This document shows, one piece after another, positions 37,012-59,388 of a stretch of 64,000 nt of DNA (its first letter is position 1; each line of letters opens with the position of its first letter). The DNA is taken from the NCBI GenBank assembly GCA_964408285.1, contig CAYOYV010000003.1, forward strand, positions 29,848-93,847. The letters are read 5' to 3'. This stretch comes from an uncultured Nitrososphaerota archaeon. Its GTDB lineage: Archaea > Thermoproteota > EX4484-205 > JAAOZO01. The notes beneath the pieces were generated by a model. The model ran no database searches. It worked only from the letters and a program-made list of their open reading frames with translations, and was not told where the DNA came from. A program made the translations under genes and the position numbers.

Positions 37012-38262
37012 TTGCCAGAAAGGACAATGGAAGACTTCAGACCCACAGAAATCGCCGAGCAGTATGGAACGCCTACGTATGTCATGAATCTGGACATTGT
37101 CAGGGACAACTTCAAAGGGCTGGAGAAATCAATAACAAAAGTCGCCCGGGAATCAAAGCTGTTCTATGCAGTTAAGGCGAATCCGCTATTGTCCATTCTG
37201 ACCGCGATAAGGAACATGGGCGGTGGGGCTGAGGTTGTGTCAAGAGGGGAGATCGAAGCCGCAGTTCGGGCCGGTTTCAGGGGAGATGATATGATATTCA
37301 ATGGTCCGGGGAAGACTCGTGGTGAAATAGAAAGGGCACTTGGACTGGGAGTATATTCCATCAATGTTGAATCGTTGGAGGAGCTAGTGGAGACAGAGAA
37401 GATTGCTAAGGCCCTTTCTACTCGATGCAGGGTCGGATTCAGGATAAATCCAGGTCTCTTGGTGAGAACTCATAAGTACCTTGCAGTGGCTTCCAGAGGA
37501 AGCAAGTTCGGCCTAGACCCCAGAAATTACGTTAGGGCCCTCGAAGCAGCATCCCGGAGTGATTACCTCAGGCCGGTCGGCATACATATGCACATTGGTT
37601 CGCAAATATCCCTTATTTCAGAATTCAAAAGGGCCTTTGGAATTGCGATGCACTTCGTCAGGGTCTTTGAGGATATGATTGGCGAGGCCCCGGATTTCAT
37701 TGACCTAGGCGGAGGCATTGCCTTGAACTACAAGACCGGCAGGCCATCAATTGCGTGGGATAGGATATCAAGCGAAGCCATATCCGAACTCACTGAGTCC
37801 CACGCATGGCCAAGGGGAGCCAAACTCCTTATGGAACCAGGAAGGGCAATAGTCGGAAACGCCGGAATACTCCTGACGAGGGTTCTCTACGTTAAGGAAT
37901 CGACAAGAACGAACTGGGCGATCACGGATGCTGGTATGAACTGCCTCATGAGAACGGCCCTCTATGGAACCAAACATAGGATAGCTAGTCTAGCTGGGAA
38001 ACGCGGAAAGCGGACAGCATACATGATCGGAGGTCCGATTTGTGAGTCCGGAGACACTTTTGGGAGGTATTTCTTGCCAGCTCTAGCAAGGGGAGATCTC
38101 CTTGCAATCCTTGACGCAGGAGCCTATGGCTCGTCTATGTCAAGCAACTACAATGGCCAACCTAGACCTGCAACTGTGGTCGTTGATTCTGGTTCTTTTC
38201 GAATGGCAGAAAGGAGAGAAGACTTGGAGGATCTCTTCATAAGGCAGATCGGGCCTCAATGA
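37012..38262 (+). CDS. lysA: Diaminopimelate decarboxylase
   Basis: YAVKAN (PLP Lys), FNGPGKT, SKFG, HIGSQ, EPGR, GPICESGD, GAYG..MSSNYN. Confidence 0.9.
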   Translation: MPERTMEDFRPTEIAEQYGTPTYVMNLDIVRDNFKGLEKSITKVARESKLFYAVKANPLLSILTAIRNMGGGAEVVSRGEIEAAVRAGFRGDDMIFNGPGKTRGEIERALGLGVYSINVESLEELVETEKIAKALSTRCRVGFRINPGLLVRTHKYLAVASRGSKFGLDPRNYVRALEAASRSDYLRPVGIHMHIGSQISLISEFKRAFGIAMHFVRVFEDMIGEAPDFIDLGGGIALNYKTGRPSIAWDRISSEAISELTESHAWPRGAKLLMEPGRAIVGNAGILLTRVLYVKESTRTNWAITDAGMNCLMRTALYGTKHRIASLAGKRGKRTAYMIGGPICESGDTFGRYFLPALARGDLLAILDAGAYGSSMSSNYNGQPRPATVVVDSGSFRMAERREDLEDLFIRQIGPQ

Positions 38263-38266
38263 TGTC

Positions 38267-39379
38267 TTATGGTCTCAGAACAACAATCGGTTGCCCCAGC
38301 TTCTTCTTTTTTGGACTGAGATCTCCTAACCCTGGCGAATCTTGGACCCCTCTTTCGCCATGGTCAGTCCATGCAGCTCCGTGATCCAGCAAGTCCTCCT
38401 CCAACATCAGATCAGAGTCTAGATCAGCGAATCGCACGGCCTCAGAACCGAGGGCGAAATGGACTCCGGCGGCTATGCTTATTCCACTTTCATTATAGCA
38501 ACCCACCATGCAACCAATTCCCTCTGCCTCACAAACAGCTGCGATTTTCAGCGCTCCGTATGTGCCAGCACTCTTCATGAGCTTGATGTTGATGAACTCG
38601 CAAGCATCAGCCCTGATTGCCGCCATGGCGTTCCTTTCATCTACAATGTCCTCATCCAGCATAATCGGCACGTGTGTTCTTTTCCTGAGAAGAGCCAAGT
38701 CCTGAAGATGGCCTCTCGGGATTGGCTGCTCCACGAATTGGACGTTAGTGTATTTCTCAAGAAGTCTCATCATCTCGAGGGCCTGACTTACATCGTATCC
38801 TTGGTTACAGTCCACTCTCATCTTCACGGTGTCTCCGATTGCCTCGTGAACTAGGTCGATCCTTTCGGCGTCACGGTTCAGATCCTCTCCGATCTTCACT
38901 TTTATTGCAGTGAACCCCTCTGCCACTTTCTCACTCGCCTCTTTTGCCATCTGGATCGGATGATCGATGCCTATTGTGTAGCTCGTCTCAATCCTTTCCT
39001 TGTTGCCTCCCAGAAACCTGTAGACTGGGACCTTTAGCTGCTTGCATAGGATATCGTGAAGCGCTTGATCGATTGAGGCTTTTGCTGACCTTCCCCTCTC
39101 GACAGTCGGGACCGTTCTTGTGAGCAATTGACCATACTCTGAAACGTCTTTTCCAATCAGCCTCCTTAGCAGTGGCTCAAAAAGCTCCTCGATGCTTTCG
39201 GATGTTTCCCCAAGTACTCTGAGGGAAGGGCTTGCCTCTCCCCAGCCTACATTGCCCTCAGAATCAGTGAGCTTGACTATGAAATTCGTTGTGCTTTTTC
39301 TACTGTCCAGGGCTGTCCTGAACTCCTTTCTAGATGCTACACATACCTTGAAAACTTCGGCCAACGATATTCTCGGCAT
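38267..39379 (-). CDS. L-Ala-D/L-Glu dipeptide epimerase (enolase superfamily)
   Basis: GWGEASP, KVKIG, DCNQG, EQP, LDE, IKLMKSAG, MVGC, DLD; F-x-T-A-L N-terminal pattern. Confidence 0.85.
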   Translation of the reverse strand: MPRISLAEVFKVCVASRKEFRTALDSRKSTTNFIVKLTDSEGNVGWGEASPSLRVLGETSESIEELFEPLLRRLIGKDVSEYGQLLTRTVPTVERGRSAKASIDQALHDILCKQLKVPVYRFLGGNKERIETSYTIGIDHPIQMAKEASEKVAEGFTAIKVKIGEDLNRDAERIDLVHEAIGDTVKMRVDCNQGYDVSQALEMMRLLEKYTNVQFVEQPIPRGHLQDLALLRKRTHVPIMLDEDIVDERNAMAAIRADACEFINIKLMKSAGTYGALKIAAVCEAEGIGCMVGCYNESGISIAAGVHFALGSEAVRFADLDSDLMLEEDLLDHGAAWTDHGERGVQDSPGLGDLSPKKKKLGQPIVVLRP

Positions 39380-39451
39380 TGACTAGATCCATCGAATGCC
39401 CAATAAAAACAATTTCTGAATGGGCCGATGTGAATTCCGTTCGACCATCTA

Positions 39452-40765
39452 CTAGGTGGCGATTCTCTGCCCCATAACAGGAATTCGGACGTCCGCACCG
39501 AGATCGCTCACATATTTGGCAAAGGCCGCTGGATGTTCGCCATGCATTGGCACGACGACTCTGGGTCTGACTTCCTTCACAAGTCTCCTTAGATCAATTG
39601 GCATCGCATGGCCGGATACATGTATGCCATAGACTCCCATTCCGAGCGCATCAAGCCAGTTTGTCAACCTTTCATAATCAAGTTCCATTTCCTCATTGAA
39701 TGGCTCAGAGGATGAGAAGACAAAGATGCTTCCCGCTTTGGGCCCTATTCTCATCACTCCCTGCAGCTCGCTTGTAGGGACTACAAGCAAGTTGTCTCTT
39801 TGGTGTGATGATATCTCTGATAGGGCCACTGTTCCCCACTTGCGACAAACTCTTTCCTCCCACTGCTGTACCTTGACCCTTTCTCTTTCCAATACACACA
39901 CCCCGTCGCGAGGACCAGGAAGTCTGAGAGTCGAGTCAGATGAGATTCTGTCAAGAAGATAGGCCCTCCTCGCAGAGATCACAAGCTTTCTGTTGGCCTG
40001 CCTTGCAGCTCTGTAAAATGATCTATATCTATCAACATCTGCGAGCGCGAAATCCCCAACAATCAGGGATGGGCACTCTGCAACGACCGAGGACAATTTC
40101 CTTTGAACTTCGCTCTCAGATGATACTTCTCCATCGGCGATATTCGTGTGTTCCACCAAGAGCATATCCGGCCTGTCTTTCTTCATTGCGTCTATGAAAT
40201 CCAGGGTCATGTCAGATCTAGGTCCATGAATTCTGAAGTCGCCTGAGTACGCGATTATGGATGACGGCGTCCTTATGATGAAACCGTAAGCGCCAGGGAT
40301 TGAGTGATCGACATGTATTGGACTTATCTCTATGGAGTCAAACACGACGGAATCTCCGGTGTGGAATTTCTTGATCGCTTTGCCTCCAATGTAGAATTCC
40401 ATTTCCTTTCGTGAGATGTCTTTGTAAGCTTCAAGTATCAACTGAGAAGCCTCGCCCGCATAAATAGGTATGTCGTCTCTGAGCAGCCCGATATGCCCTG
40501 CGTGGTCTCTGTGGGCGTGTGATAGGAGAACAGCGCTGAATGGCTTTGGTCCTTCTTTCGAATAGGCGCCCGGAATATCAGGCAATATCCCCAGTTCCAG
40601 CATAACCCTCAGATCTCGTGGCTTTAGGAAAGGATCCGTGAAGAATTTGCCCCTCTGCCTGTATGACAGCCCGAAGTCGATCATTATTGACGATTCTTCG
40701 TCTCTCAACAGAAACTTGTTCCCGCCGACCTCATCAATGCCACCGTAGGCCACTATCGAAGCCAA
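39452..40765 (-). CDS. Beta-CASP metallo-beta-lactamase, RNase J/aCPSF-like
   Basis: EVGGNK, DFG, HAHRDH, DHSIPG, GDFR, HVSGH, PMHG. Confidence 0.82.
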   Translation of the reverse strand: MASIVAYGGIDEVGGNKFLLRDEESSIMIDFGLSYRQRGKFFTDPFLKPRDLRVMLELGILPDIPGAYSKEGPKPFSAVLLSHAHRDHAGHIGLLRDDIPIYAGEASQLILEAYKDISRKEMEFYIGGKAIKKFHTGDSVVFDSIEISPIHVDHSIPGAYGFIIRTPSSIIAYSGDFRIHGPRSDMTLDFIDAMKKDRPDMLLVEHTNIADGEVSSESEVQRKLSSVVAECPSLIVGDFALADVDRYRSFYRAARQANRKLVISARRAYLLDRISSDSTLRLPGPRDGVCVLERERVKVQQWEERVCRKWGTVALSEISSHQRDNLLVVPTSELQGVMRIGPKAGSIFVFSSSEPFNEEMELDYERLTNWLDALGMGVYGIHVSGHAMPIDLRRLVKEVRPRVVVPMHGEHPAAFAKYVSDLGADVRIPVMGQRIAT

Positions 40766-40857
40766 TCTGCCATTGTCTTCGCACCTCTGCTAATATCGAT
40801 TTCCTCTCCCCTCTCGCGGAAACGCTTTTCTAGTCAAGCCAAATCCAGCTATATGTC

Positions 40858-41604
40858 ATGGCGAGTTTCACATTTATGGAGAAGAAAAGGGTTCAAGATG
40901 GAAGCCTTGTGTTGGATGGACTGCCCGATACGGGCCTTGTTGGGACTATAGCTGCCCTCCACCTTGTCAGGGCTAAGGGCATGTCCCCCATGGTGAGGAT
41001 AGATTCCGATCTATTGCCTCCTGTCGCAATCGTGAAGGAAATGAATCTTTTCGAACCACTCATGATATACAGCTCTGATGGCGTTTCAGTAATAGCCTCT
41101 GAGATCCCGATTCCCACGGAAATCACGAAACCTTTTGCGAGAGAATTGGTGGTCTGGATCAAGGATCATCGCTGCAGGGCCGTAATTTCGATTGGTGGAA
41201 TCCCAGAACCCGCCAGATCGGAGATTGAGGAACCAGAGGTGTTCTATCTGACGAACTCGACTGAGGCATTCTCAGCCACGATAGATCTGGGAAAGACCAA
41301 GCAATTGGATTCGGCATTCCTAGTTGGTCCAAAGGCTGCCTTCTTGCTGGAGTGTTTCAGGGAGGAGATACCAACGATTGGCCTATTCGCTCAATCGTTT
41401 CCGAATTACCCAGATCCGGGTGCAGCAGCATCTGCACTCACCCTGCTAAGGCGCTCAAACGTTTTCCAAGTCGATCTTGAGGAACTGGTGAAATCCGGCG
41501 AAGAGATGCGCGTGAGGTTCAGGGATCTCATGAGGAGAACAATGGGAGAGATGGAGAGAGCTCAGAAATCGAGGGAAATGGAGTCTCCCTCGCTTCTGGT
41601 GTGA
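40858..41604 (+). CDS. PAC2-family proteasome assembly chaperone
   Basis: GLPDTGLVG, LFAQS, YPDPGAAA, VDLEELVK. Confidence 0.88.
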   Translation: MASFTFMEKKRVQDGSLVLDGLPDTGLVGTIAALHLVRAKGMSPMVRIDSDLLPPVAIVKEMNLFEPLMIYSSDGVSVIASEIPIPTEITKPFARELVVWIKDHRCRAVISIGGIPEPARSEIEEPEVFYLTNSTEAFSATIDLGKTKQLDSAFLVGPKAAFLLECFREEIPTIGLFAQSFPNYPDPGAAASALTLLRRSNVFQVDLEELVKSGEEMRVRFRDLMRRTMGEMERAQKSREMESPSLLV

Positions 41605-41615
41605 GGTGATCCAGA

Positions 41616-42035
41616 ATGTCCCTTGGCTTTTCAGACGAATTCGACGAGAGATTCAGGAGGCTAATCTTGGAGGCTAGGAGAACAGAAGAGAGGATGGCAA
41701 GGGCTCTGAAGGAATTCGAGCGCTCAGAGAGATGCGTAGTCCCCCTACATGAGCTGAGGCCAACAACCGATGGATACACATTGACAGTGGATTTGCCCGG
41801 TGTGCAGAAGGATGAGGTAGGCCTAACGTTGGAGGGCACCTCATTGTTCATGACAGCTCCCTGCAAATCCATTACAGAGAAGAGGAGAAGACATGCAAAA
41901 GAACTGAACTACATAATCGAGATATCTCTCCCCGGTGATGTCGACACCAAGACCATCAAGGCCACAATGCGGAATGGTTTACTGAGACTAGAAATGAAAA
42001 AACGCATAGGGGGTTACAAGATAAGGATAGATTAG
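41616..42035 (+). CDS. Small heat-shock protein (Hsp20)
   Basis: VDLPGVQKDEV, ISLPGDVD, ATMRNGLLRL; GAGGTGA ribosome-binding site upstream. Confidence 0.88.
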   Translation: MSLGFSDEFDERFRRLILEARRTEERMARALKEFERSERCVVPLHELRPTTDGYTLTVDLPGVQKDEVGLTLEGTSLFMTAPCKSITEKRRRHAKELNYIIEISLPGDVDTKTIKATMRNGLLRLEMKKRIGGYKIRID

Positions 42036-42043
42036 AATACCAC

Positions 42044-43336: not shown

Positions 43337-43473
43337 AGCGCGTCTTGGGAATGGGGTTCAGGGACAGATGGAAGGGGATCAGTCCGCATCCTTCACCGAG
43401 CCGAGCTCATACGTAGAATCACTTCATGGTGAATCATTATAAAGCATCAAACGCAACTCTTCGAGGGGAATCA

Positions 43474-44298
43474 ATGGAAGAGGAACCAGTGTCTTTCACG
43501 AATGAGGGAGAGAAGCTGTCTGGGATGTTCCATTTGCCAGAAAAAACGCCTGCCCCTTCTATAGTATATTGCCCTGGTTTCACCGGGCACAAGATCGAGG
43601 CCCACAGGCTATTTGTCCATGCGGCGAGATACATGGCTAGAGCAGGTTTCCTAGTTCTTCGCTTTGATTTCAGGGGATCTGGAGAAAGCGAGGGGATGTT
43701 CGAATCAATGACCGTTTCTGGCGAAATAAGCGATCTCAAAAAAGCTATAACCCTCACACTTGGCAGAAAAGAAGCCCAGGGTAAGAAGGTAGGAGTGCTC
43801 GGACTGAGTCTCGGCGCAGCGGTTTCTATTCTGACAGCGGCCGACGATGATAGAATAGGAGCCGTCTGCTCGTGGTCTGGTCCGGCGAGTTTCAATGCAT
43901 CCTTCCAAGCCGCCGAATCAATCATGGGCAGGCCGATCAACATGGCCAATCTGAGTCAAATGGACTACATCGATATGCCTAGCGGATACAGGCTCGGCAG
44001 AGCATTCCTGTTGGATATCATGAAGCATGATGTCTCGGGTAGTTGTGCCAGAATCTCTCCTAGACCTATTCTCATAGTACATGGAACACTAGATCAGCTT
44101 GTGCCTGTTCAGGATGCGGAAAGGCTGTTCCTATCAGCTAGAGAACCGAAGGAGAAAATACTCATACATGAAGCAGATCATACGTACAATCGGATTGATT
44201 GGCAATCGGAGGTGATTGAACGCACTACCGAGTGGTTTAACCGAACGTTGACCTCGGGCAAAGGGAGCTTGATTGGCAAGAACGATTCCACGACCTGA
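43474..44298 (+). CDS. Alpha/beta hydrolase
   Basis: RFDFRGSGESEG, GLSLG nucleophile elbow, HGTLDQLV, ADH. Confidence 0.9.
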   Translation: MEEEPVSFTNEGEKLSGMFHLPEKTPAPSIVYCPGFTGHKIEAHRLFVHAARYMARAGFLVLRFDFRGSGESEGMFESMTVSGEISDLKKAITLTLGRKEAQGKKVGVLGLSLGAAVSILTAADDDRIGAVCSWSGPASFNASFQAAESIMGRPINMANLSQMDYIDMPSGYRLGRAFLLDIMKHDVSGSCARISPRPILIVHGTLDQLVPVQDAERLFLSAREPKEKILIHEADHTYNRIDWQSEVIERTTEWFNRTLTSGKGSLIGKNDSTT

Positions 44299-44318
44299 GT
44301 TCCTTTGCCAGTATTCAA

Positions 44319-47646: not shown

Positions 47647-47656
47647 TGTACCTCGT

Positions 47657-48518: not shown

Positions 48519-49475
48519 TCAAGCGCAGCCCCAAAGTTGCCTCGAGAACCTCAACACCTGCTTGGCAAGCCTAACTCTGCCCCTCTGTCCGGCCATGAAT
48601 GTATCAGTCACAAAGGGCGTGATCCCTAGTTGCTCGATTTCGTGCCGAAGCTGAGAGTCACTTCTATCTATTACAAATGCGTCGATTATGTCCCGATACA
48701 TGCTTGCCACTTCCAATGAAGTGGTTTCTCTTTTGAAGGTCTTCAGCATCAGACTAAGGGGCCCCTTCACGACCTTTCCTCCAATTATCGGCGAGATGGC
48801 GATCGTAGGCTCGTTCCTGCTGCGCATGAGCTCCCTCACACTGTCAACGGAGAGGATCGGTCCTATGCTCACAAATGGATTGCTTGGGGAGAGAATAACT
48901 AGATCAGAGTGAGTTATCGCGCTCGTCACGCCTGGAGAGGCTCTAGCGCCAGACATCCCTCTGAATCTAATAGCGTTTATCTTGTCTCGCATCCTCCTTT
49001 TCACTAGATATTCCTGAAAGTGAAGATCGCCCGCCTTTGCAATGATTCGGGTCTCAACATGTGAATCTGTCATCGGGATTATCCTGCATTTCAGCCCAAA
49101 GGCTTTTCTGAAAAGTTCAGTTACCCGGGACAACGAATGGCCCTTCTGAAGCAATTCCGTTCTGACGATGTGGATGGCGATATCCATATCTCCCAGTCTG
49201 AACCACGTTTCTTGTCCGATCCTATCGAGCATTCTCATGCATCGAAATGTGTCCCCGGTGATCCCCCACCCCTTTGACTCATCAACGATACGAGCAAGCG
49301 AGTATGTTATGATGTCAATGTCTGGTGATACATAGAGACCATGAGTGATTATGTCGTCCGCAGTATTCACTATCGCGGTTACCCCCTTCTCAGGGAAAAC
49401 ACTAACCAGCCCAGTCAGAAATTTGGCTGCGCCGACCCCTCCGCAGAGGACCGTTATTTGTTTCGGCCAGGTCAT
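48519..49475 (-). CDS. cofD: 2-phospho-L-lactate/PEP transferase for F420 biosynthesis
   Basis: GGVGAAKF, NTADD, SPDID, WFRLGD, PMTD, PSNPFVSIGPIL, SPIIGG. Confidence 0.95.
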   Translation of the reverse strand: MTWPKQITVLCGGVGAAKFLTGLVSVFPEKGVTAIVNTADDIITHGLYVSPDIDIITYSLARIVDESKGWGITGDTFRCMRMLDRIGQETWFRLGDMDIAIHIVRTELLQKGHSLSRVTELFRKAFGLKCRIIPMTDSHVETRIIAKAGDLHFQEYLVKRRMRDKINAIRFRGMSGARASPGVTSAITHSDLVILSPSNPFVSIGPILSVDSVRELMRSRNEPTIAISPIIGGKVVKGPLSLMLKTFKRETTSLEVASMYRDIIDAFVIDRSDSQLRHEIEQLGITPFVTDTFMAGQRGRVRLAKQVLRFSRQLWGCA

Positions 49476-50080
49476 TTCCAAACTGAGACCTCCCTCAAGA
49501 GTCTGCGACGGGGTGGGCTAGGTCTTTCACATGATTTCCCCAGGGCGATCATGGCAATCGGTTCCCATTTCTTACCGACTCCTAGGACGCTGGCAACCTC
49601 TCTTCTGGCGAATAGCGGCGCACAACTCCATCTTGCTCCGATTCCAATTGCGTGGGCCATCAGCAACATGTTCTGGATGGCTGCCGATGCACTCTGAATC
49701 GCCATAGTTCTTTCAGCCGAATTCCTTATCTCATCACTATATACGTCCATATCTTCCATCGTCACTGCGACAACTATTATGACCGAGGTATGAAGAAATC
49801 TGTTCGTTGAGGATGCAATCACACGTTCGGCCTCAGCTGATCCTATGCCATCCCCTTCAAGGTCCTCTCTCCACTTCCTGCCCATCGCAACCAGCATTTT
49901 GTGCTTGTTCCTTTGATTCCTAACGATCACGAACCGCCAAGGTTGCGCATTATGAGCAGAAGGTGCCCATATGCCAGCAGAAAGGATTCTTTCTATTGTT
50001 CGCCTCCCTATAGACATCTCCCTGAGCTTCCTTACTGTTCTTCTGCCCTTGATGAAACGCAATAGTCGACTAGGATCCAT
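49472..50080 (-). CDS. Nitroreductase-family protein resembling the FbiB C-terminal domain (stand-alone)
   Basis: RRTVRK, APSAHNAQPWRF, MGRKWREDLEGDG, AERTMA..SASAAIQNMLL; ATGA overlap with cofD. Confidence 0.85.
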   Translation of the reverse strand: MDPSRLLRFIKGRRTVRKLREMSIGRRTIERILSAGIWAPSAHNAQPWRFVIVRNQRNKHKMLVAMGRKWREDLEGDGIGSAEAERVIASSTNRFLHTSVIIVVAVTMEDMDVYSDEIRNSAERTMAIQSASAAIQNMLLMAHAIGIGARWSCAPLFARREVASVLGVGKKWEPIAMIALGKSCERPSPPRRRLLREVSVWK

Positions 50081-50220
50081 TGTGGAGTTCTCCGCAGCGG
50101 GAGGTTTTAAGCGAGAGATGCCTCCGATCGAAGCCGACCTCGTCAGCTGGGGAAAAAGGATTGGCCGGATGGCTTGGGAGCTTCCGCGCATGCAACTCCA
50201 TCAGATAGCGATGGAAGCAT

Positions 50221-50865
50221 CTATTCGCGCATGAAACTGTCCAAGTCCGACACAAGAGCCTCGAATGTTTGGCCGAATATCCTCAAACCGATTTCCGGAT
50301 TCGCCTTTTTCGGATCTCCCGTCACCCCGAATGAGGGATCGGCGTACTTCATCATCTCTAATTTCGCCATACTTGGCCTAAGGTAGAGGATTTGAGATGT
50401 GAGGAAAGGATTGCCGGGGGAAAGCGGATCCTCGCCTTCAAGCTCAGGTACCTTCGGATAGTTCTGCCACAGTCCCAGTGCCTTCTTCTTTCCGGGGATC
50501 TGACCAAGAACAGTCTGGCATGCTTCAAGGTCTTTTTTGCCATTGCACAGAATGGCCGTCCTTTCGATTCTTAGCGTCTTGAGGCCTTTGGAGGATTCCA
50601 GAATTGCAGCCTTGAAAGCACTTTCTGAGGAAGGCAACAAGCTCCTTTCACTCAGGGTGGTTAGGACGATCGGGTTGAGGAATAGATATGGATGCAGCCT
50701 CTCTGTAAGTCTATGTGAATATTCCCCGACCAGTTCTATTTCCGATCCAGAAGCAAGATGAGGACCATGGTCCACAAGACCAGCGATTGGAATCAAGCCT
50801 GCCAAGGCCTGCTTCGATCTGTATCTGAATTCCGGACCTGTCATCTCGCCTGTTGAAGGTAGCAT
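50221..50865 (-). CDS. Creatininase/ArfB-family homologue with degenerate metal site
   Basis: LIPIAGLVDHGPHLASGSE resembles xPxGSxEQHGPHLPxGTD; GVTGDPKKANPEIG C-terminal motif; the NGHGGN and HAG..ETS motifs are lost. Confidence 0.65.
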   Translation of the reverse strand: MLPSTGEMTGPEFRYRSKQALAGLIPIAGLVDHGPHLASGSEIELVGEYSHRLTERLHPYLFLNPIVLTTLSERSLLPSSESAFKAAILESSKGLKTLRIERTAILCNGKKDLEACQTVLGQIPGKKKALGLWQNYPKVPELEGEDPLSPGNPFLTSQILYLRPSMAKLEMMKYADPSFGVTGDPKKANPEIGLRIFGQTFEALVSDLDSFMRE

Positions 50866-50885
50866 GGGCCACGGAATCAGCAAGC

Positions 50886-50896: not shown

Positions 50897-50923
50897 CTTC
50901 CGACTTTACGCGCAGTGGACTCA

Positions 50924-51883
50924 ATGGTTCAATCACAGCGCAGGGCCCTTGGCTTGGTCTATGGAAAAGAACTGCTATCATACGATTTCGGCCCTAATCA
51001 CTATATGAACGCAAAGAGGCTGATATCTTTTTTCGAGGCAGTTCAGTCATCAAGTCTATTGACCGATAGAAGAATATCCGTTCTGAATCCGAGGAAGGCA
51101 ACACGAGAGGAATTAGCGCTCTATCACGATGAAACTTACATAGGATTCGTCAAGAAGGCATCGGAAAGAGGAACGGGCCTGCTGGACTATGGAGACACTC
51201 CTGTGTTTCCAGGGATTTTCGAAGCAGCATCATATGTGGTTGGGTCCTCTCTCGCGGCATTGGATGCCGTGATGAAGGGAGAAGTGACCTACTCCATGAA
51301 TCCAATGGGAGGAATGCATCATGCAAGGAAGAATCGAGCAGCTGGCTTCTGCGTCTTCAATGATGTAGGGGTCATAATCGAAAAGTCAAGAAGGGAATAT
51401 GGCCTTGCCAGGATCCTGTATGTGGATCTGGATGCCCATCACGGGGACGGCGTGATGTATGACTATTATGACGATCCTAACCTGTACATCGCGGACTTCC
51501 ATGAGGATGGGAGATACCTATATCCTGGAACAGGATTCACCGATGAGACAGGGGGTTCCAATGCTGCCGGGACAAAATTGAACTTGCCCCTAAGGCCGGG
51601 CGCCAGAGATGCCGAATTCCTCGACAAGTTCCAAACGATGAAGGAGTTCGTATCTGCACTCTCCGTCGATCTGACAATAGTGCAGGCTGGCGTCGACTCC
51701 ATCGCCGGAGACCTTTCTCACCTAGATTTGACCATGAATTCGCATCTTGCTGTCATCTCTTTCCTAAAGAAGCGCGCCGCATCGAGTTCGAAAGGTCCCT
51801 TGATCGTTCTGGGGGGAGGCGGTTATAATCCCAGAAATACTTCGGCAGTCTGGCTCTCAATAGTCAAGAATCTCATCGGATGA
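50924..51883 (+). CDS. Zn-dependent histone deacetylase superfamily protein (AcuC-like)
   Basis: FGPNH, GDTP, GGMHHA, GFCVFND, DLDAHHGDG, GVDS, GGGGY. Confidence 0.93.
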   Translation: MVQSQRRALGLVYGKELLSYDFGPNHYMNAKRLISFFEAVQSSSLLTDRRISVLNPRKATREELALYHDETYIGFVKKASERGTGLLDYGDTPVFPGIFEAASYVVGSSLAALDAVMKGEVTYSMNPMGGMHHARKNRAAGFCVFNDVGVIIEKSRREYGLARILYVDLDAHHGDGVMYDYYDDPNLYIADFHEDGRYLYPGTGFTDETGGSNAAGTKLNLPLRPGARDAEFLDKFQTMKEFVSALSVDLTIVQAGVDSIAGDLSHLDLTMNSHLAVISFLKKRAASSSKGPLIVLGGGGYNPRNTSAVWLSIVKNLIG

Positions 51884-51953
51884 TCATTGGCAGACACCCT
51901 TTTGCCGAATAAAAGAAGGATTTTTTATACTTCTGAAGATGGATTTCCTATGT

Positions 51954-54674
51954 ATGAGGATAAGGGGTATCTATCTACATTGCCTCGTTATAGTGGCAAT
52001 CGGGCTATCTGCCTTAGAACCGGGAACAAGTGCCTCGGAATCGGCCCCAGAGCGATTTGAGGGAACTGGCCCCGTTCTCTCAAGCAGAATCGTGGCGAAG
52101 ACCTCTTCGGAGACATTCACGATGAAAGGAATCATTCAAGGAGTTCCAGGTTATTCAGCTGGGAATTTGGAATCCGCGGCTTCTGCTGGTTCCGTTGCTG
52201 TAGGAATCTTCCAATCTCCCAAATGGTCAGATGTATATTGGGCCATGAGAAACTATGGGAGTTCGACGAGCGGGGAATTCGTCCTATTCCAGAATGATGT
52301 ATTCCAGGTCCGCTATGGCAATTACAATACATGGAAGTATGTTGCATTGAATTCGAGCTATCCAAGTTTGAGGCAGAATTTCACTGTTCCTTCTTCCTCA
52401 GTCGGATTCACTACCAACTATACATGGCTAGTGGTCAGAGTCAACTCGGGAACCGCGAGATTCCATCTCGAGATCTGGAATTACGGGCTGATAAGTTTCG
52501 GAATAACGTCTCAATCAGTTGAGGTTTCAGGACCGTATGACCCCTGGTGGGTCTCTCTAAGGATGCCCAGCACTAGGAATCTCACAAATGAAACATACAG
52601 GATAGAGGCAGTCTGGGAATCGGGTTCAGGACTTGAAGTCCTGTTGATAGACAACTTCAGAGACGCCGATGACAGGGCTTCAGGGAATGCGCAATTGCTC
52701 AATTCAACATCATCGATTTACCTGAACATGTCGGGACTCATGATGGAGAGCGTGCTGACACAACCAGAATTGGATTCGTATTCGACCTTCTTTAGTGCTT
52801 GGCAGGGCTCTCTACGCCTTCGCAACTTGATCATCTACCTTAAGGGAAGAAATCTGCCCCAAAGCAACGTAACTGCTTCCGTCAATTCCACGCAGTTCGG
52901 CAAGGGCCTTGTTCCGGCAATATACCTCCCGTTTCCTTTTGACCAGATTGGGTTCACATCAACTGTAAGGGGATCCGCGTCTTTTTCAGGAGGAACCATA
53001 TCGTTTTCATCGGATCTAAACAAGCTCAACCAGAGCCGAGTCAAGTACGATAGAGATCACATCCCTCCTTTTCCAAGACCTTTCGCCTATCTGTCAATCA
53101 AGACGGATTCCGTCGAAAAACCGTGGGCATACTGGGAGATCTCTGCTGTGGATTGGTCTGTGCGAGTGCAGGATGCATACGGAGCTCTGCACCCTCTACC
53201 TGCCACAGAAGTAAGACAACTGGAGTCGGGATTGAAGGTCAGCTATCCTATCTATGTCTTCCCCAATGCATTCCCGTCCTATGGCTTCCTCAACTTCACG
53301 ATGGCTCTCAACTACACGATAGAGGCTTCGTCGAACGGGCCTCAATTCTTCACTAACTATACAGTGTTTCCGGAAAGCCTTGCTCGCTGGATGATTTCGA
53401 ATCCTGCAGTAGCTTTCACAGCAGCACGTGGATCAAATGTGACGATCAAGATAGACTCCATACCGAACGAATGGGACATACGAAGCGCGAGCGTTACAGC
53501 AGGTCCCGGAGGAGGAATCCCGGTTGTTTTGATCCAGACAGGCAGTATCCTAATTCGCAACATTCTGATGGGGAATATGACATCATACTCTGGCTCAGTT
53601 ATTCTCAACATGGATGCACCCAATTTCCTTGATACGCTGACTTCCTATGTGCAATACAGATGGAAGAATTCGACAACCTCTTTCTTCTTGAGGGGGGACG
53701 CAATGAGAATTGATGCAAGGGCCTCTTCTACCCTGCCCGACTATCCCCCAGGAAAGATCTCACTGGAAGTTAAAGGGCCTTCTGGTTCTATATTTAGCCA
53801 AGTTTTCGGCCAAGAAAACGAGAACGGTGTTGCCACTGGCGACATTCAGCTGAGCCTAGCTGGGACGCACATCGTGATCGCTACATACAGATCTCTCGAT
53901 GGATTCAGAGTTGGTATATTCAGGGGAGAATGCGGCGTACTACAAGTCAGAAGTGCTATCGAGAAGGACAGGGTTCTCTTGAGTTCCGCAAGAGTGTCAA
54001 TAGAACTTGAACCCTCAGACATGGGACTAGTGGGTTCTGGCACGTTAGCGCTTGTCTCCCCCAATGGAACCATTTCAGGCTTATCAACTGATAGGATCAA
54101 TAACAAACTGGTGAAGACGATTTCTTTCCTGCAGACGGATCCAAGTGTGATAGGTAATTGGAGTGTCATACCTTCGATTGTCTTCCCGAATGGTCTATCA
54201 AGGGATCTCTCCCCGCTTAGATTCCGAGTGCTCGATGATATCCCACCTAACATCACGAATGTATTTCAATTGCCAAAGGAGACCACCTTTCTTGATCCTG
54301 TGAATGTGACGATCGTGGTCGACGATAAGGGAACGGGAGTGAATTCGGTCTGGATTTCTTACTCGATCGGAGATAGCAGCACGAGAAATAACATCACCGC
54401 CGTGAGACTTCGCCAAGGAATCTATTCTGCAACCATTCCGCGGCAATCCCCCTTCACAAGGGTCTCGTATTGGGTCTGTGCCGATGATAAGGCGAAGAAC
54501 TCTAGTGAGCTGGGGCCATACTCATACGAGGTTTTGATACCCATCTGGATGTGGGCCGTTGCAGCCGCGATACTCATTCTATTGGGAATAGGGATCCTAA
54601 TCCAATACAGGCAAGAAGCACGAAAATCAGAGCCCGGTGCCCCTCCGGCGCCGATTCAACCTCTTGGCACGTGA
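51954..54674 (+). CDS. Large secreted, C-terminally anchored surface glycoprotein
   Basis: Signal peptide, many N-x-S/T sequons, beta-rich body, DDIPPNITNV Ig-like domain, C-terminal TM; TATA position favours ATG 51954. Confidence 0.7.
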   Translation: MRIRGIYLHCLVIVAIGLSALEPGTSASESAPERFEGTGPVLSSRIVAKTSSETFTMKGIIQGVPGYSAGNLESAASAGSVAVGIFQSPKWSDVYWAMRNYGSSTSGEFVLFQNDVFQVRYGNYNTWKYVALNSSYPSLRQNFTVPSSSVGFTTNYTWLVVRVNSGTARFHLEIWNYGLISFGITSQSVEVSGPYDPWWVSLRMPSTRNLTNETYRIEAVWESGSGLEVLLIDNFRDADDRASGNAQLLNSTSSIYLNMSGLMMESVLTQPELDSYSTFFSAWQGSLRLRNLIIYLKGRNLPQSNVTASVNSTQFGKGLVPAIYLPFPFDQIGFTSTVRGSASFSGGTISFSSDLNKLNQSRVKYDRDHIPPFPRPFAYLSIKTDSVEKPWAYWEISAVDWSVRVQDAYGALHPLPATEVRQLESGLKVSYPIYVFPNAFPSYGFLNFTMALNYTIEASSNGPQFFTNYTVFPESLARWMISNPAVAFTAARGSNVTIKIDSIPNEWDIRSASVTAGPGGGIPVVLIQTGSILIRNILMGNMTSYSGSVILNMDAPNFLDTLTSYVQYRWKNSTTSFFLRGDAMRIDARASSTLPDYPPGKISLEVKGPSGSIFSQVFGQENENGVATGDIQLSLAGTHIVIATYRSLDGFRVGIFRGECGVLQVRSAIEKDRVLLSSARVSIELEPSDMGLVGSGTLALVSPNGTISGLSTDRINNKLVKTISFLQTDPSVIGNWSVIPSIVFPNGLSRDLSPLRFRVLDDIPPNITNVFQLPKETTFLDPVNVTIVVDDKGTGVNSVWISYSIGDSSTRNNITAVRLRQGIYSATIPRQSPFTRVSYWVCADDKAKNSSELGPYSYEVLIPIWMWAVAAAILILLGIGILIQYRQEARKSEPGAPPAPIQPLGT

Positions 54675-55924
54675 TCAGCGTTCGATTGGACTAGTTTGCT
54701 ATATATCTCAAGTGTCTGGTTCGCCACCATTTCCCAAGTGAAATATTTCTCTGCTCTTCTCCTGCCATTTATGCCCCACCTCTTCGCATCTCCTGGATTT
54801 CCAAGCATGGCTTTGATTCCCCATCCAATGTCCGTAGGCTCGTTTCCGTTGACATGTATCCCGCACTGGTCCGGACCCGAAGGTACTACTTGTTCCCTAA
54901 AGCCAACGACGCCGTTTGCGCCCACGACAACTGGCTTCTCCATGGCCATGGCCTCGAGACAAACGATTCCGAAGGGTTCATATGTGCTTGGGAACACAGC
55001 CGCATCGCACGCTGCGTAATGGAGTATCCTCTCGTCCTCAGGAATGAACTCATACCTCACCTTTATGTTCTTCTTAATCCCGAGTCTCTCTGCCAGTTCT
55101 ATTATGTAGTCCTGCTGTTCGCCTTTTCCCAAGATGACAAGCTTTGTCTTCGGATGCTCTGCTAGGACGTCAGGCATTGCCTGGATCAGATTCGCAATGC
55201 CCTTAATCCAAGTCAGTCTACCTATGAAAAGCAGCATATTCTCATCATCCGCTATCTCATAGAACTTCCTGATCTCCTTGACTTTTTCGACTGGGGCCTT
55301 CGCAGGATCATACGTATCGATATCAATCCCATTCCACACGACAGAGATCTTGTCGCTTGGCCAACCGTGTTTCTCCAAGTCATCCTTCATTGCATAGCTG
55401 ACCGTGATGATCCTATCTACTGAGCGAGATGCCTCAAGTTCCAAGTGACTGATGATTCTAGAGCCTTCTCCTGACCTCCCCCATTCTGTGGAGTGGACAT
55501 GGAAGATGCTGGGTATCCTCGGCAATTCGTTCTTAATGCTTATACCTGAAAGTGCGCTGAGCCAATCATGGAATGCTACTATACTGTGTTCCAGCTTCAG
55601 CTTCTTCTCCAATTGGTTCACGAACTTAGCAGTCGAGAGAACATTGTAGACCAACACGTCATTGAAGAACCTGATCTGAGGCCCCCATTTTATGATATCA
55701 TCGGTCACAAACAGGGGGAAGACATTCGATATGTTGACAAGCTTGGGTCGATGTACTTCTACGCCTTGCGTTACTTCTCTTGTGGGTAGATTGCCGGGAT
55801 TCAGGCTTAGGACCGTAACATCATGTCCCTTCTTCACGAATTCCCGGGTTATGTATCCAGCATATGTACCCAGACCACCAACGAGCATGGGTGGATATTC
55901 CCAGACAAGAAAGGCAAGTCTCAT
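54656..55924 (-). CDS. Glycosyltransferase family 4 (glycogen-synthase-like)
   Basis: WEYPP..VGGLG, HDWL, HSTE, NGID, FIGRL..KG, PSTYEPFGIVCLEAMA. Confidence 0.92.
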   Translation of the reverse strand: MRLAFLVWEYPPMLVGGLGTYAGYITREFVKKGHDVTVLSLNPGNLPTREVTQGVEVHRPKLVNISNVFPLFVTDDIIKWGPQIRFFNDVLVYNVLSTAKFVNQLEKKLKLEHSIVAFHDWLSALSGISIKNELPRIPSIFHVHSTEWGRSGEGSRIISHLELEASRSVDRIITVSYAMKDDLEKHGWPSDKISVVWNGIDIDTYDPAKAPVEKVKEIRKFYEIADDENMLLFIGRLTWIKGIANLIQAMPDVLAEHPKTKLVILGKGEQQDYIIELAERLGIKKNIKVRYEFIPEDERILHYAACDAAVFPSTYEPFGIVCLEAMAMEKPVVVGANGVVGFREQVVPSGPDQCGIHVNGNEPTDIGWGIKAMLGNPGDAKRWGINGRRRAEKYFTWEMVANQTLEIYSKLVQSNADHVPRG

Positions 55925-56005
55925 CTTACATCGTATTGTTTGTCCTACGATTATATAAGGTTCGTGATGAGCATGGTTAAAAATCAGCCTTGACGCACGT
56001 AGAGC

Positions 56006-56380
56006 ATGAAGGAAGCAATCCTATCAGAAAAGGCACCGAGGCCCATCGGTCCATATTCACAGGCAATAAAGATAGGGGGACTCGTGTTTCTTTCAGGGAT
56101 AATTCCCCTTCGGCCGAGTTGCGAGGTATTGAAAGGCAACATGGCAGACCAATTCCGCTTGATCATTGAGAACGCCAAGGCGATTTTGGAATCGGCCGGG
56201 ACTTCTATGGATGACGTGATCAAGGTCACGGTCTACATGAAGGATCTGAAGGACTTCGATGCAATGAACGAGGTTTATGCTTCAGTCTTTCGGCCTCCTT
56301 TTCCAGCCAGAAGTACCGTCCAGGTTGCAGCGTTGCCAAGAAACGTGGACATTGAAGTTGACTTGATTGCAGCTGTTTAG
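56006..56380 (+). CDS. ridA: RidA-family enamine/imine deaminase
   Basis: APRPIGPYSQA, SGIIP, KVTVY, F..MNEVY, PARST (catalytic Arg), LP..V.IEVD. Confidence 0.92.
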   Translation: MKEAILSEKAPRPIGPYSQAIKIGGLVFLSGIIPLRPSCEVLKGNMADQFRLIIENAKAILESAGTSMDDVIKVTVYMKDLKDFDAMNEVYASVFRPPFPARSTVQVAALPRNVDIEVDLIAAV

Positions 56381-56387
56381 TGGCGGT

Positions 56388-57077
56388 TCAAGCTCTGTGT
56401 TTCAACAGAAAAAGCAACAATGCGAATGGCTCCTTTATCGGATCTAGTTTGCTCCTCCCCCGTTTCCTGTCCTCGAATCTAATGGGGACCTCTTTGACCG
56501 ATAGTCCTTCTTTCAACACAAGCCATGTTGCCTCGACTTGGAAGGAACGTCCGTCTGAGCTCGTTCTTTCAGAGAGTAGTCTTGCCACTCTCTCGTTGTA
56601 ACTTCTGAAGCCGGATGTGGAATCGCTGACATCAATGCCCAGAAACGAGCGGGCCAGTGAATTCGCAGTGAGAGAGATCAGCCAACGGAATCTCGACCTT
56701 TCTCCTGTCGTAGCTCCCGTGATGTACCTAGAACCTATGATCATGTCTGCCTCCGTTCCCAGCAACTTAGGAGCATCCCTTGGATCATGACTGAGATCGG
56801 CGTCCATCTGAACATATCTCTGAATGTCAGGAATCTCAAGGGCTTTCCTAAGACCTTCACGTATTGCAGATCCAATTCCCATCGGCTTGCTTCTTTGTAT
56901 CAGAACCAGATCGCCGCAAGTCCCGGCAAGGGTCTTGATTGATTCTATTGTTCCGTCTTGTGAGCCGTCATCAACTATGACTATTTTGGAGATATCTTGG
57001 TTGCTCCTCAGCTGGCCAATCAGATCAATTAGATTGTCTGCCTCATTTAGGGTCGGGATGATGACAGCAGCCCTCAA
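56388..57077 (-). CDS. GT2 polyprenol-phosphate mannose synthase-like (Dpm1 family)
   Basis: IPTLNE, VDDGSQDGT, QMDADLSHDP, GSRY, DSTSGFR, FEDRKRGRSK. Confidence 0.9.
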   Translation of the reverse strand: MRAAVIIPTLNEADNLIDLIGQLRSNQDISKIVIVDDGSQDGTIESIKTLAGTCGDLVLIQRSKPMGIGSAIREGLRKALEIPDIQRYVQMDADLSHDPRDAPKLLGTEADMIIGSRYITGATTGERSRFRWLISLTANSLARSFLGIDVSDSTSGFRSYNERVARLLSERTSSDGRSFQVEATWLVLKEGLSVKEVPIRFEDRKRGRSKLDPIKEPFALLLFLLKHRA

Positions 57078-57108
57078 GGTCTTTCTCCTTTATCGATGAG
57101 AAGAACGT

Positions 57109-58329
57109 TCAGGAGATTTCAAATGTGAACCCCTGCGCACTCAGGCAATCGGTCAGCTGCTGAAAGCTCTCTCCTATCTGAATTTCCATAGTTATCTGCA
57201 CAGTAGCCATTGACGGAGGCACATTGGGCTCATCTCTGATATGAGCCAGATCAACGACGTTGGCCCTTGCGGATGCTATGCATCCGAGGACTGTTCTAAG
57301 ACTGCCCGGCCTATCTGGTATAGTGACTGTCAGTCTTGTCAGCCTCCCGGTCTTTCTGAGACCCTGCGTGATGACCCTAGCGAGAAGAAGAGGATTCGCG
57401 TTGCCTCCGCTGACTATTGCACCGACTCTCTTTCCTGACAAGTCCATCTTTCCTGAAATTGCGCCAGCCAAGGAAGCAGCACCCGCTGGTTCAGCAACCA
57501 TTTTTGACCTTTCCAGAAGCATGAACATCGCTTTTCCGATCTCATCATCCGTGACGGTTATCATGTCGTCTATGACCTCCATGGCGATGTTGAACGTCAA
57601 TTCCCCGGGCTTCTTGACGGATATGCCATCGGCTATGGTCGCTCCCCTCTTGACTTCCGTCAATTGTCTGCGCCTGAACGATTCATAGAATGCTGGATAC
57701 TCGGAAGATTGAACACCCACTATCTTCGTGGCGGGACTCAGCTTTTTCATAACGCTCCCCAGACCGGAAATCAAGCCGCCTCCGCCAACAGGAACGAGGA
57801 GGAAATCGAGCTTTGGCGCCTGCTCATGAAGCTCGAGCCCCATCGTTCCCTGACCAGCAGCAACGTCCAGATCATCAAATGCATGAATGAACCTTGCTTT
57901 CCTTTCAATCGCATATTCTCTTGCCGATTCGTAGGAATCGTCGTAGGTATCGCCCTTAAGATGTATGACCGCCCCATATGATCTCGTAGCTTCTATCTTG
58001 TTTGGTGATGCGTATTCCGGCATGAACACATGAGTCTCTAATCCTAATGAAGATCCAGCATAGGCTACCCCTTGACCATGATTTCCAGCTGAAGAAGTGA
58101 CAACGATTCTCTCTCCTCGGCCTTTTGCCTTCCAACAGGCGTTCAGCGCGCCCCTTATCTTGAATGCCCCGGTCTTCTGCATATTCTCAAGCTTCATGAA
58201 AACCTCAGCTCCCGTGGCCTTGCTGAACGCGGCGCTCCTGACTAAGTCTGTCTTACGGACATACGCAACGATGTTTTCCATAGCCTTCTTCGATTCCTCA
58301 TAGACTTCGTCGACCCGAGAGCCTCTCAT
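57109..58329 (-). CDS. ilvA: Threonine ammonia-lyase with C-terminal ACT domain
   Basis: KLENMQKTGAFKIRGA, SAGNHGQG, PVGGGGL, EPAGA, SGGN, ACT motif PDRPGSL. Confidence 0.94.
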   Translation of the reverse strand: MRGSRVDEVYEESKKAMENIVAYVRKTDLVRSAAFSKATGAEVFMKLENMQKTGAFKIRGALNACWKAKGRGERIVVTSSAGNHGQGVAYAGSSLGLETHVFMPEYASPNKIEATRSYGAVIHLKGDTYDDSYESAREYAIERKARFIHAFDDLDVAAGQGTMGLELHEQAPKLDFLLVPVGGGGLISGLGSVMKKLSPATKIVGVQSSEYPAFYESFRRRQLTEVKRGATIADGISVKKPGELTFNIAMEVIDDMITVTDDEIGKAMFMLLERSKMVAEPAGAASLAGAISGKMDLSGKRVGAIVSGGNANPLLLARVITQGLRKTGRLTRLTVTIPDRPGSLRTVLGCIASARANVVDLAHIRDEPNVPPSMATVQITMEIQIGESFQQLTDCLSAQGFTFEIS

Positions 58330-58337
58330 ACTAGGTA

Positions 58338-58351
58338 TGAGTTCGAACTCA
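58338..58351. promoter_or_regulatory. Perfect 14-bp palindrome TGAGTTCGAACTCA between the ilvA TATA and start
   Basis: Read directly; 9-22 nt upstream of ATG 58329, next to a TATA-like ATAAAT on the minus strand. Confidence 0.45.
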
Positions 58352-58539
58352 AGGATTTATGATTTGGCTTGGCGTGCGCGCGTGACAGAGCCAAGATAAA
58401 TATCTCAATGGGGAACCCATGCGCCCATTTCCAATACTTGTCCGATCCTATGGCTGTTGAGAGACTCTCTCAGCCTCTTGGACAGTCCCCTCGGGATTTC
58501 TCTGAAACTCTAAATCCACCGTAATTGCAGGAGGAACGC

Positions 58540-59388
58540 TCATTTGACCTCAGCGCAGATCCTTTTTGCCCCAACCAAGAGCGGCTTCAGCGAGTCAAGG
58601 CTCTGTACCAGTACCTTGCCCTCCGTTCCCGAGGCGTGCACAATCTGCTTGCTTTCGATGAAAAGTGCAACATGGCCAACCCTTCTCTCAGAAGGTTGTT
58701 TGAAGAACAGCAGATCTCCAGGAAGAATCCGCGCGAAGTCAACCAGAAAGCCAGCTGTGTCATACTGCATGTGCGCATCCCTCTTCAGGCGATATCCATT
58801 CATTCCGAACACAAGCTGGGAGAACCCAGAGCAGTCCAATCCCCAAGGCGTGGTTCCGCCCCACAGATAGGGAACCCCTTGAAGGCTCAATGCTGTTTCA
58901 ATCACATCCTGACAACCCTTTCTGGGAAATGGATCTGCTGCTTGCCTTGTTATCCCGAAGGTCGTGTAGCCAATTCCACCATCAGGTAGAGCCAAAACCT
59001 TCTTGCCCTTCTTTTCCCCCGCTAGTGAGAGGCGGCTCCCCATCGGAGCTACTAAGAAAGGCTGGAATCTGGCTAAGCTCGAAGATATCGGTGTGAACGG
59101 ATCGTCGAATACAACCACTTCGCCTTGCTGACCATAAGAACGAGATCCACTTCGCATTATGCCTTTCCTTCTTATCCAACCGACATAACCATCCTCGCAT
59201 TCAACAAGAGAGAATACACCATGCTTCTTGGTCTCTTTCAGATTCTCCCCGAGTCTGGCCTGTGTCACCCTTTCCGCATCATGTCTCGGATTCGTAAGAA
59301 CATCAATGAAGGAGTCAAGAACTACCAGATTCATCTCGAACCAGTACGCCTCTATCTGATATTTAGCGCTTAGCGTGACTGCAGGCAA
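58540..59388 (-). CDS. SH3b-NlpC/P60 (C40) peptidase, YkfC/dipeptidyl-peptidase VI-like
   Basis: PYLWGG, GLDCSG (Cys), RDAHMQ, GDLLFF, HVAL (His), IVHAS (His); N-terminal VTQARLGE...DGYVGWI SH3b pattern; no signal peptide. Start may be 59334. Confidence 0.9.
   Translation of the reverse strand: MPAVTLSAKYQIEAYWFEMNLVVLDSFIDVLTNPRHDAERVTQARLGENLKETKKHGVFSLVECEDGYVGWIRRKGIMRSGSRSYGQQGEVVVFDDPFTPISSSLARFQPFLVAPMGSRLSLAGEKKGKKVLALPDGGIGYTTFGITRQAADPFPRKGCQDVIETALSLQGVPYLWGGTTPWGLDCSGFSQLVFGMNGYRLKRDAHMQYDTAGFLVDFARILPGDLLFFKQPSERRVGHVALFIESKQIVHASGTEGKVLVQSLDSLKPLLVGAKRICAEVK

Follow-up and report, generated by a model that had tools for sequence, protein, structure and literature searches.

How could an archaeon, which makes no murein of its own, come to carry enzymes of the kind that bacteria use to take apart the peptides of this polymer? 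The question is raised by a 64-kb stretch of contig CAYOYV010000003.1 from an uncultured archaeon (hereafter, the window), for which a first-pass annotation had proposed a pathway that consumes the stem peptides of bacterial peptidoglycan and is formed by a YkfC-like peptidase, an Ala-Glu epimerase and LysA, the decarboxylase of diaminopimelate (DAP). That annotation had placed the open reading frames (ORFs) of lysA, the epimerase and the peptidase correctly, and we examined them together with every ORF of appreciable size in the window and in its flanks of about 9 kb. As discussed below, the proposal stands in part: a YkfC-type peptidase and an archaeal host are both supported, while the specificity assumed for the epimerase, the catabolic role assigned to LysA and the presence of the remaining pathway genes are not. 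The enzymes and the logic of the pathway are familiar from bacteria; the novelty lies in finding a genuine member of the YkfC subfamily in Archaea.

The YkfC-type peptidase and its host

The gene that carries the argument lies on the minus strand (58540-59334) and encodes a cysteine peptidase of 264 aa with the SH3b1-SH3b2-NlpC/P60 architecture of the YkfC/dipeptidyl peptidase VI (DPP VI) type (Pfam SH3_16 and NLPC_P60). Its largest possible ORF extends to a TTG at 59388; the start is probably the ATG at 59334, since the relatives of the protein start there and a TATA-like box read from the sequence (TAAATAT, minus strand, 59359-59365) is found 25-31 nt upstream, which would weakly favour both the shorter start and a promoter of its own. 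No hydrophobic segment, signal peptide or membrane segment is present anywhere in the protein (the highest 19-residue Kyte-Doolittle mean is 1.27) and, thus, the peptidase is expected to be cytoplasmic.

In bacteria, the YkfC subfamily has been defined by a Cys238-His291-His303 triad, an S1 site made of Tyr226, Trp228, Asp237, Ser239 and a small residue at position 257, and an S2 clamp for a free N-terminal L-Ala that combines Tyr118, from strand betaD of the SH3b domain, with Asp256 (PMC2954226). Each of these elements has its counterpart in the archaeal protein (264-aa numbering, with the BcYkfC residues in brackets): the catalytic C168, H221 and H233 (Cys238, His291 and His303); the residues of the S1 site for gamma-D-Glu, Y156, W158, D167, S169 and A187 (Tyr226, Trp228, Asp237, Ser239 and Ser257); and the clamp residues Y50, within a DGYVGW motif, and D186, which follows R185 (Tyr118 and Asp256). 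The signature stretches D167-C168-S169 and R185-D186-A187 align with Asp237-Cys238-Ser239 and Arg255-Asp256-Ser257. Across an alignment of 43 homologs, no variation is seen in the Cys and the first His, and hardly any in the second His; both clamp residues are invariant, and the YkfC signature residues as a whole are invariant or nearly so in these homologs and in the archaeal cluster described below.

The predicted fold leads to the same family. The PDB entries matched by the sequence are 3npf, 3pvq and 3h41, and an AlphaFold (AF2) model built on the homolog alignment reaches a predicted local distance difference test score (pLDDT) of 96.7 and a predicted template modelling score (pTM) of 0.93. 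When this full-length model was compared by Foldseek with 3npf, 4r0k (DPP VI) and 3h41 (BcYkfC), TMq values of 0.87-0.90 were obtained, with a root-mean-square deviation of 2.7 A over about 280-307 columns. Judged by its sequence and its modelled fold, the protein belongs fully to the YkfC/DPP-VI subfamily, in agreement with the first-pass annotation, which had also described it correctly as signal-less and with an intact Cys-His-His triad. It very probably acts on murein stem peptides, a substrate that in an archaeon would necessarily be foreign.

Two other roles were considered and rejected. A lysin or antibacterial weapon is ruled out by the lack of a signal peptide and by the S2 clamp, which requires a free L-Ala N-terminus, and a prophage or mobile element is ruled out by the neighbouring genes, namely ilvA (a threonine ammonia-lyase, with 449 bits against a TIGR01127 cut-off of 379), ridA and glycosyltransferases. 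Additionally, a 196-aa gene beside the peptidase was compared with a 196-aa gene that accompanies the ATP-grasp genes of locus L095, and the two were found to be unrelated.

Close relatives of the peptidase are rare. A search of 5.8 billion proteins recovered only about six related clusters at 44-99% identity, the remaining relatives being almost all bacterial and at most 35% identical. The archaeal cluster spans 44-80% identity and keeps the triad and the clamp residues intact. When the alignment of this cluster was used to scan the GTDB species genomes, the matches listed were all bacterial, with identities of 34% or less, and no close relative in the species representatives was among them; a metagenome scan with the peptidase alone yielded, apart from distant matches in bacteria, just two short contigs that are nearly identical. 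The G+C content (GC), the G+C content at third codon positions (GC3) and the codon usage of the peptidase, like those of lysA and the epimerase, are ordinary for the window. Because identities spread over 44-80% with the key residues intact, and because codon usage is native to the window, the gene can be considered old and maintained, and it looks like an old transfer from bacteria to a small archaeal lineage that has kept it under selection. In 2010, the YkfC subfamily was described as occurring mainly in four bacterial phyla (PMC2954226), and no archaeal YkfC-type pathway is described in the literature that we consulted on Brockarchaeota, Bathyarchaeia, archaea, peptidoglycan and dipeptide epimerases.

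The host is an archaeon of the Thermoproteota whose nearest named relatives are the Brockarchaeota. The archaeal origin claimed in the first-pass annotation is borne out by the neighbouring genes, which include those of a family-B DNA polymerase (PolB), Nre, PAC2, CofD, a THEP1-type nucleoside triphosphatase, a class I lysyl-tRNA synthetase (LysRS), a pyruvoyl arginine decarboxylase and a DUF4443/PH0730-like protein. The nearest named relatives of lysA, at 50-57% identity, belong to metagenome-assembled genomes (MAGs) of Brockarchaeota and Thermoproteota. The same gene order recurs across several independent assemblies, and the neighbourhood of the peptidase is also found in a relative with a 79% identical peptidase.

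The epimerase and LysA

The second gene (minus strand, 38267-39379) encodes a 370-aa protein of the MLE subgroup of the enolase superfamily (Pfam MR_MLE_N and MR_MLE_C). A TATA-like box read from the sequence (TTTTTATT, minus strand, 39402-39409) lies 23-30 nt upstream of its ATG and suggests that the gene has a promoter of its own. The top match of the protein in the PDB is YkfB of Bacillus subtilis, an L-Ala-D/L-Glu epimerase (1jpm/1tkk, E 1e-64), and the four enzymes ranked next are dipeptide epimerases as well. Residues K160, K162, D190, E217, D242 and K266, as well as the pair D319-x-D321, are invariant among 17 homologs. The catalytic and metal-binding positions among them align with K160/K162/K268 and D191/E219/D244 of YkfB, which we take to be acid/base residues and Mg ligands, respectively. 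D319-L-D321, in turn, aligns with the DfD, DfD, DlD, DlD and DlD of 1jpm, 3q45, 3jva, 3rit and 2zad, a DxD motif after the last barrel strand that Lukk et al. reportedly found in 2012 to bind the N-terminal ammonium of the dipeptide. Going by these motifs, the reaction class is that of a dipeptide epimerase, and the domains, the PDB matches and the motifs all agree with the assignment to this group made in the first-pass annotation.

Homologs annotated as dipeptide epimerases, with about 40% identity, are numerous in Bathyarchaeia and Thermoplasmatota. Archaeal members of the Ala-Glu epimerase (AEE) family were noted long ago, together with a remark that other functions may be theirs (PMC3605383); the occurrence of such an epimerase in archaea is already known and, hence, not new. 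In one Bathyarchaeia MAG (L089:11456-12157), the homolog P0142 is flanked by a transporter of the major facilitator superfamily and has a gene of the Asp/Glu racemase family 2.4 kb away, a possible sign that this lineage handles D-amino acids.

The third gene, lysA, lies on the plus strand (37027-38262) and encodes a protein of 411 aa; its start is probably the ATG at 37027, with a TTG at 37012 as the alternative. The protein has the domains of a fold-type III decarboxylase (Orn_Arg_deC_N and Orn_DAP_Arg_deC) and reaches 393 bits against the TIGR01048 equivalog model, for which the cut-off is 298. Its best PDB matches (2p3e, 3c5q and 1twi) are all DAP decarboxylases, with which it shares, in the alignment, the lysine that binds pyridoxal phosphate and the HxGSQ, EPGR, R..LY, CESGD and GAYG..M.S.YN motifs, so the DAP-type CESGD motif reported in the first-pass annotation is confirmed. 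An identity as D-Orn/D-Lys decarboxylase was ruled out (202 bits against a cut-off of 700), and the scores for arginine and carboxynorspermidine decarboxylases are far below their cut-offs. On sequence grounds, then, the enzyme is a DAP decarboxylase.

The stop codon of lysA (TGA, 38260-38262) is separated from that of the epimerase, on the opposite strand (38267-38269), by the 4 bp that had been pointed out previously. Upstream, a DUF8156 gene and the PolB gene, neither of which belongs to the proposed pathway (together, 34504-36984, plus strand; gene calls and Pfam) precede lysA, with only 42 bp from the PolB stop to the lysA ATG and no TATA-like box within them, and lysA is probably co-transcribed with PolB. 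The block DUF8156-PolB-lysA, with the convergent epimerase, is kept in two other loci (L088 and L094), where the epimerases are 47% and 41% identical to that of the window and the genes on the far side of the epimerase differ; the homolog lists suggest three further lysA-epimerase adjacencies. Between these two loci and the window, PolB and an aminoacyl-tRNA synthetase share 54-61% identity, LysA 48-52% and the epimerase 41-47%, meaning that the epimerase diverges faster than the neighbouring housekeeping genes. In another MAG (L093), a 57% identical lysA stands alone, and both an epimerase and dap genes are absent from its surroundings.

The location of lysA within a conserved PolB block fits a housekeeping gene. 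The enzyme most likely serves, chiefly, as the last step of lysine synthesis, with the decarboxylation of salvaged meso-DAP (mDAP) as a side benefit. The catabolic role that had been proposed for LysA is consequently not supported, given that the gene follows PolB at 42 bp, without a promoter-like box between them, in a conserved syntenic block.

Possible murein-peptide salvage and its alternatives

The reading that we favour, tentatively and as something just short of probable, is that of a heterotrophic archaeon with an acquired YkfC-type peptidase, which, together with the epimerase and LysA, would provide a loose salvage of murein peptides. The lineage would have acquired a bacterial gamma-D-glutamyl-diamino-acid peptidase of the YkfC/DPP-VI type and retained it under selection. 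Bacteria, living or dead, would release free stem peptides whose N-terminal L-Ala is not blocked (L-Ala-gamma-D-Glu-mDAP or its -Lys counterpart, each either carrying D-Ala or lacking it), and these would presumably enter the cell through a transporter. The cytoplasmic peptidase, whose class and recognition residues are indicated by its sequence and fold, would then cut the bond between gamma-D-Glu and the diamino acid. The epimerase, whose substrate is uncertain, may convert the resulting L-Ala-D-Glu to L-Ala-L-Glu for a general dipeptidase, and LysA would decarboxylate the mDAP set free by the peptidase, yielding lysine. The three genes do not form an operon; they amount to a pathway only in a loose sense. 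Salvage is plausible for the peptidase and possible for the epimerase, while a dedicated catabolic role of LysA is unproven.

Several observations weigh against such a salvage route. No oligopeptide or muropeptide importer (Opp/Dpp), LD-carboxypeptidase (Peptidase_S66), amidase or dipeptidase (M19/M20) was found in the window and its flanks. Nor do the three genes form a ykfABCD-type cluster: a distance of 19 kb separates the epimerase from the peptidase, whose neighbours are unrelated, and the whole set is scattered over 22 kb, as expected from the remark in the first-pass annotation that they do not form one operon. As for the epimerase, the position of YkfB Arg24 is occupied by Asp25, followed by Ser26, Arg27 and Lys28; this Arg24, or a neighbouring Arg in YcjG-like enzymes, is presumably the residue that binds the side-chain carboxylate of Glu. 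The syntenic orthologs of the epimerase (P0123/4/7/8/9) carry Arg at this position, Gly is found there in the Bathyarchaeia homologs, and Arg is present at 23 or 24 in six of the seven bacterial epimerases that adjoin YkfC-like genes and have a usable N-terminus. Both Ala-Glu models of NCBIfam score the protein below their cut-offs (NF041118, 248 against 500; NF011708, 89 against 343), and it also matches, with 148 bits, the model of the N-acetyl-D-Glu racemase DgcA. With Asp in place of Arg24 and both scores below cut-off, the Ala-Glu specificity that had been assigned to the enzyme is not supported, and it may or may not take L-Ala-D-Glu. Furthermore, Bathyarchaeia and Thermoplasmatota, in which epimerase homologs are common, have no close relative of the peptidase. 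Finally, much of the region around the lysA block is syntenic in L088 and L094 and the lysA-epimerase pair is convergent, so that the adjacency of these two genes is weak evidence of a shared function.

The search within the window and its flanks also covered D-glutamate enzymes, the dap genes (asd, dapA, dapB, dapL, dapD/C/E and dapF) and lysW-type genes, and none was found. Thus, the importer, LD-carboxypeptidase, amidase and dap genes that the first-pass annotation had suggested looking for are all missing from this range.

In another explanation, the three genes would be unrelated, with lysA serving solely to end a full DAP-type route to lysine encoded elsewhere, an epimerase (one of many in archaea) acting on other dipeptides or N-acyl amino acids, and a peptidase acting on some other gamma-glutamyl amide; the pathway would then be read into this genome from what is known of Bacillus. 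The position of lysA 42 bp behind PolB in a housekeeping block, the lysA of L093 that stands without epimerase or dap genes nearby, and the dispersal of the three genes are all as expected under this explanation. So are the features of the epimerase, which lacks an equivalent of Arg24, falls below the AEE cut-offs, matches the DgcA model and belongs to a family that is widespread in archaea without this peptidase and whose archaeal members probably have other functions (PMC3605383). What chiefly speaks for a murein substrate is the peptidase. To our knowledge, no endogenous archaeal compound contains L-Ala-gamma-D-Glu, which counts against an unrelated set, and we consider such a set rather unlikely.

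Three further explanations were weighed. In one of them, which we regard as quite improbable, the route is anabolic: the epimerase and a Ddl-like ATP-grasp ligase would make a peptide, envelope or osmolyte component with D-residues, and the NlpC/P60 enzyme would trim or recycle the product. Such a ligase is indeed encoded on the same contig (L005:869-2089; NF002378, 154 bits against a cut-off of 243), at about window positions 67300-68520, which is past the window end and some 8 kb away from the peptidase gene. Near the epimerase homolog P0125, at a distance of 2-5 kb, there are two ATP-grasp homologs and a lysine-2,3-aminomutase-like gene (L095/L096:12945-16127), and the ligase shares 36% identity with one of these two homologs. 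However, the ligase adjoins neither the epimerase nor the peptidase, the window holds neither Mur-type ligases nor MraY nor any other gene for wall synthesis, and the S2 clamp accepts only peptides whose N-terminal L-Ala is free (PMC2954226), as in degradation products. Still less probable, and in our view highly so, is that the lysA-epimerase pair is biosynthetic, with the enolase-type enzyme replacing DapF or epimerising N-acyl-DAP to feed meso-DAP to LysA. The two genes are neighbours in three genomes or more, where the epimerases share 41-47% identity and the far-side genes differ, which would agree with this; the DxD motif and the best structural relatives nevertheless indicate dipeptide substrates, the whole region is syntenic anyway with the pair convergent, and we know of no enolase-superfamily DAP epimerase. 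Lastly, the bacterial type of the peptidase might derive from an assembly chimera or from bacterial contamination, as all its relatives beyond the tiny archaeal cluster are, among the matches listed, bacterial and no more than 35% identical. The first-pass annotation had itself named a chimeric contig as something that would undo its proposal. In view of the archaeal flanking genes (such as that of the DUF4443/PH0730-like protein), the gene order repeated in independent assemblies and in the relative with the 79% identical peptidase, and a GC and codon usage native to the window, this is very unlikely, to the point of being negligible.

The loose salvage of murein peptides around an acquired peptidase is, therefore, the reading that we retain, in its modest form. 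Its stronger version, a first dedicated archaeal route for stem peptides in which the acquired peptidase splits imported L-Ala-gamma-D-Glu-mDAP, lysA and the epimerase are a functional unit that turns both products into L-amino acids, LysA is an orphan in a genome without a DAP pathway and lysine derives from bacterial necromass, appears distinctly unlikely. If lysA were an orphan, a dependence on bacterial necromass for lysine would be implied; present evidence stops short of that. In any case, much carbon and nitrogen in sediments and soils is stored as peptidoglycan. Little is known of its degraders, among which archaea are seldom counted because they are not among its makers. The YkfC subfamily has crossed into Archaea, and a conserved cytoplasmic peptidase of this type is a clonable gene with which archaeal feeding on bacterial wall peptides becomes testable.

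Surrounding genes and known systems

Around the three genes, there are others that are consistent with a polymer-degrading heterotroph, as Brockarchaeota have been reported to be (PMC8065059). Besides a peptidase-like hydrolase, these include genes for a neutral ceramidase, a DUF2961 protein, a BNR_2 sialidase-like protein and a GH106 protein (85-1335, 25198-26271, 62742-63803 and L005:2376-5465). An ATPase of the BcrAD_BadFG family (30743-31780) matches the N-acetylglucosamine kinase model with 127 bits against a cut-off of 370, too weakly for a link to amino-sugar salvage. Two large ORFs (51939-54674 and 19301-21163, of 911 and 620 aa), whose sole match is a faint Ig-like Big_3_5 domain, may encode surface proteins. 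The genes at 48519-50883, for CofD, a nitroreductase-family protein (with a 10 bp overlap) and a creatininase-family protein (below the Pfam cut-off), resemble an F420-related cluster. A tRNA-Glu(TTC) gene of 89-91 nt (24862-24950), with a probable intron, overlaps an over-long ORF call for the class I LysRS, and a tRNA-Thr call by ARAGORN (44068-44147), inside an alpha/beta-hydrolase ORF and without Rfam confirmation, is probably false.

Among known systems, the peptidase of the window compares best with YkfC and DPP VI, with which it shares the SH3b1-SH3b2-NlpC/P60 fold, the Cys-His-His triad, the S1 residues and the clamp of an SH3b Tyr and an Asp; it is also as signal-less as YkfC of B. 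subtilis, a cytoplasmic enzyme for whose gene an association with ykfB has been described (PMC2954226). It differs in being archaeal, in its 22-26% identity to the solved structures and, among the matches listed, no more than 35% to bacterial homologs, and in not being adjacent to an epimerase, an LD-carboxypeptidase or a peptide transporter. The epimerase, for its part, shares with YkfB/YcjG and with the dipeptide epimerases of known structure (1tkk, 3q45, 3jva, 3rit and 2zad) the TIM-barrel enolase fold signature, the KxK and K acid/base pair, the D/E/D metal ligands and the DxD motif, and differs from YkfB by the Asp in place of Arg24 and by its scores below the cut-offs of both NCBIfam AEE models.

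As a set, the genes resemble the ykfABCD operon of B. subtilis in that the same types of enzymes are present in one genome. By contrast, the window and its flanks contain no LD-carboxypeptidase of the YkfA type, no dipeptidase and no transporter, and the archaeal host makes no murein, so that the substrate would have to be foreign. In bacteria of diverse phyla, an enolase-type epimerase directly adjoins the peptidase homolog in 10 of the 80 loci listed by the peptidase scan, in agreement with the association of ykfB and ykfC (PMC2954226). One uncultured bacterium (L039:8937-12893) even has the epimerase, an SH3b-NlpC/P60 peptidase, an M19 dipeptidase and lysA in one tight cluster, where lysA reaches 304 bits on TIGR01048 (cut-off, 298) and the epimerase scores best on the DgcA model. 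This locus is the proposed pathway, complete and in bacterial form, and lysA is able to join such a cluster.

The use of bacterial D-amino acids is not foreign to archaea either. A glutamate racemase of ammonia-oxidising archaea has been linked to it (PMC12363236), and a DgcN/DgcA pathway for D-Glu in haloarchaea is cited within the same work. What these cases have in common with the route considered here is the recovery of carbon and nitrogen from D-amino acid compounds derived from bacterial walls; they differ in the compound that is used: free D-Glu in the former and, in the latter, a still intact stem peptide that a YkfC-type peptidase would cut.

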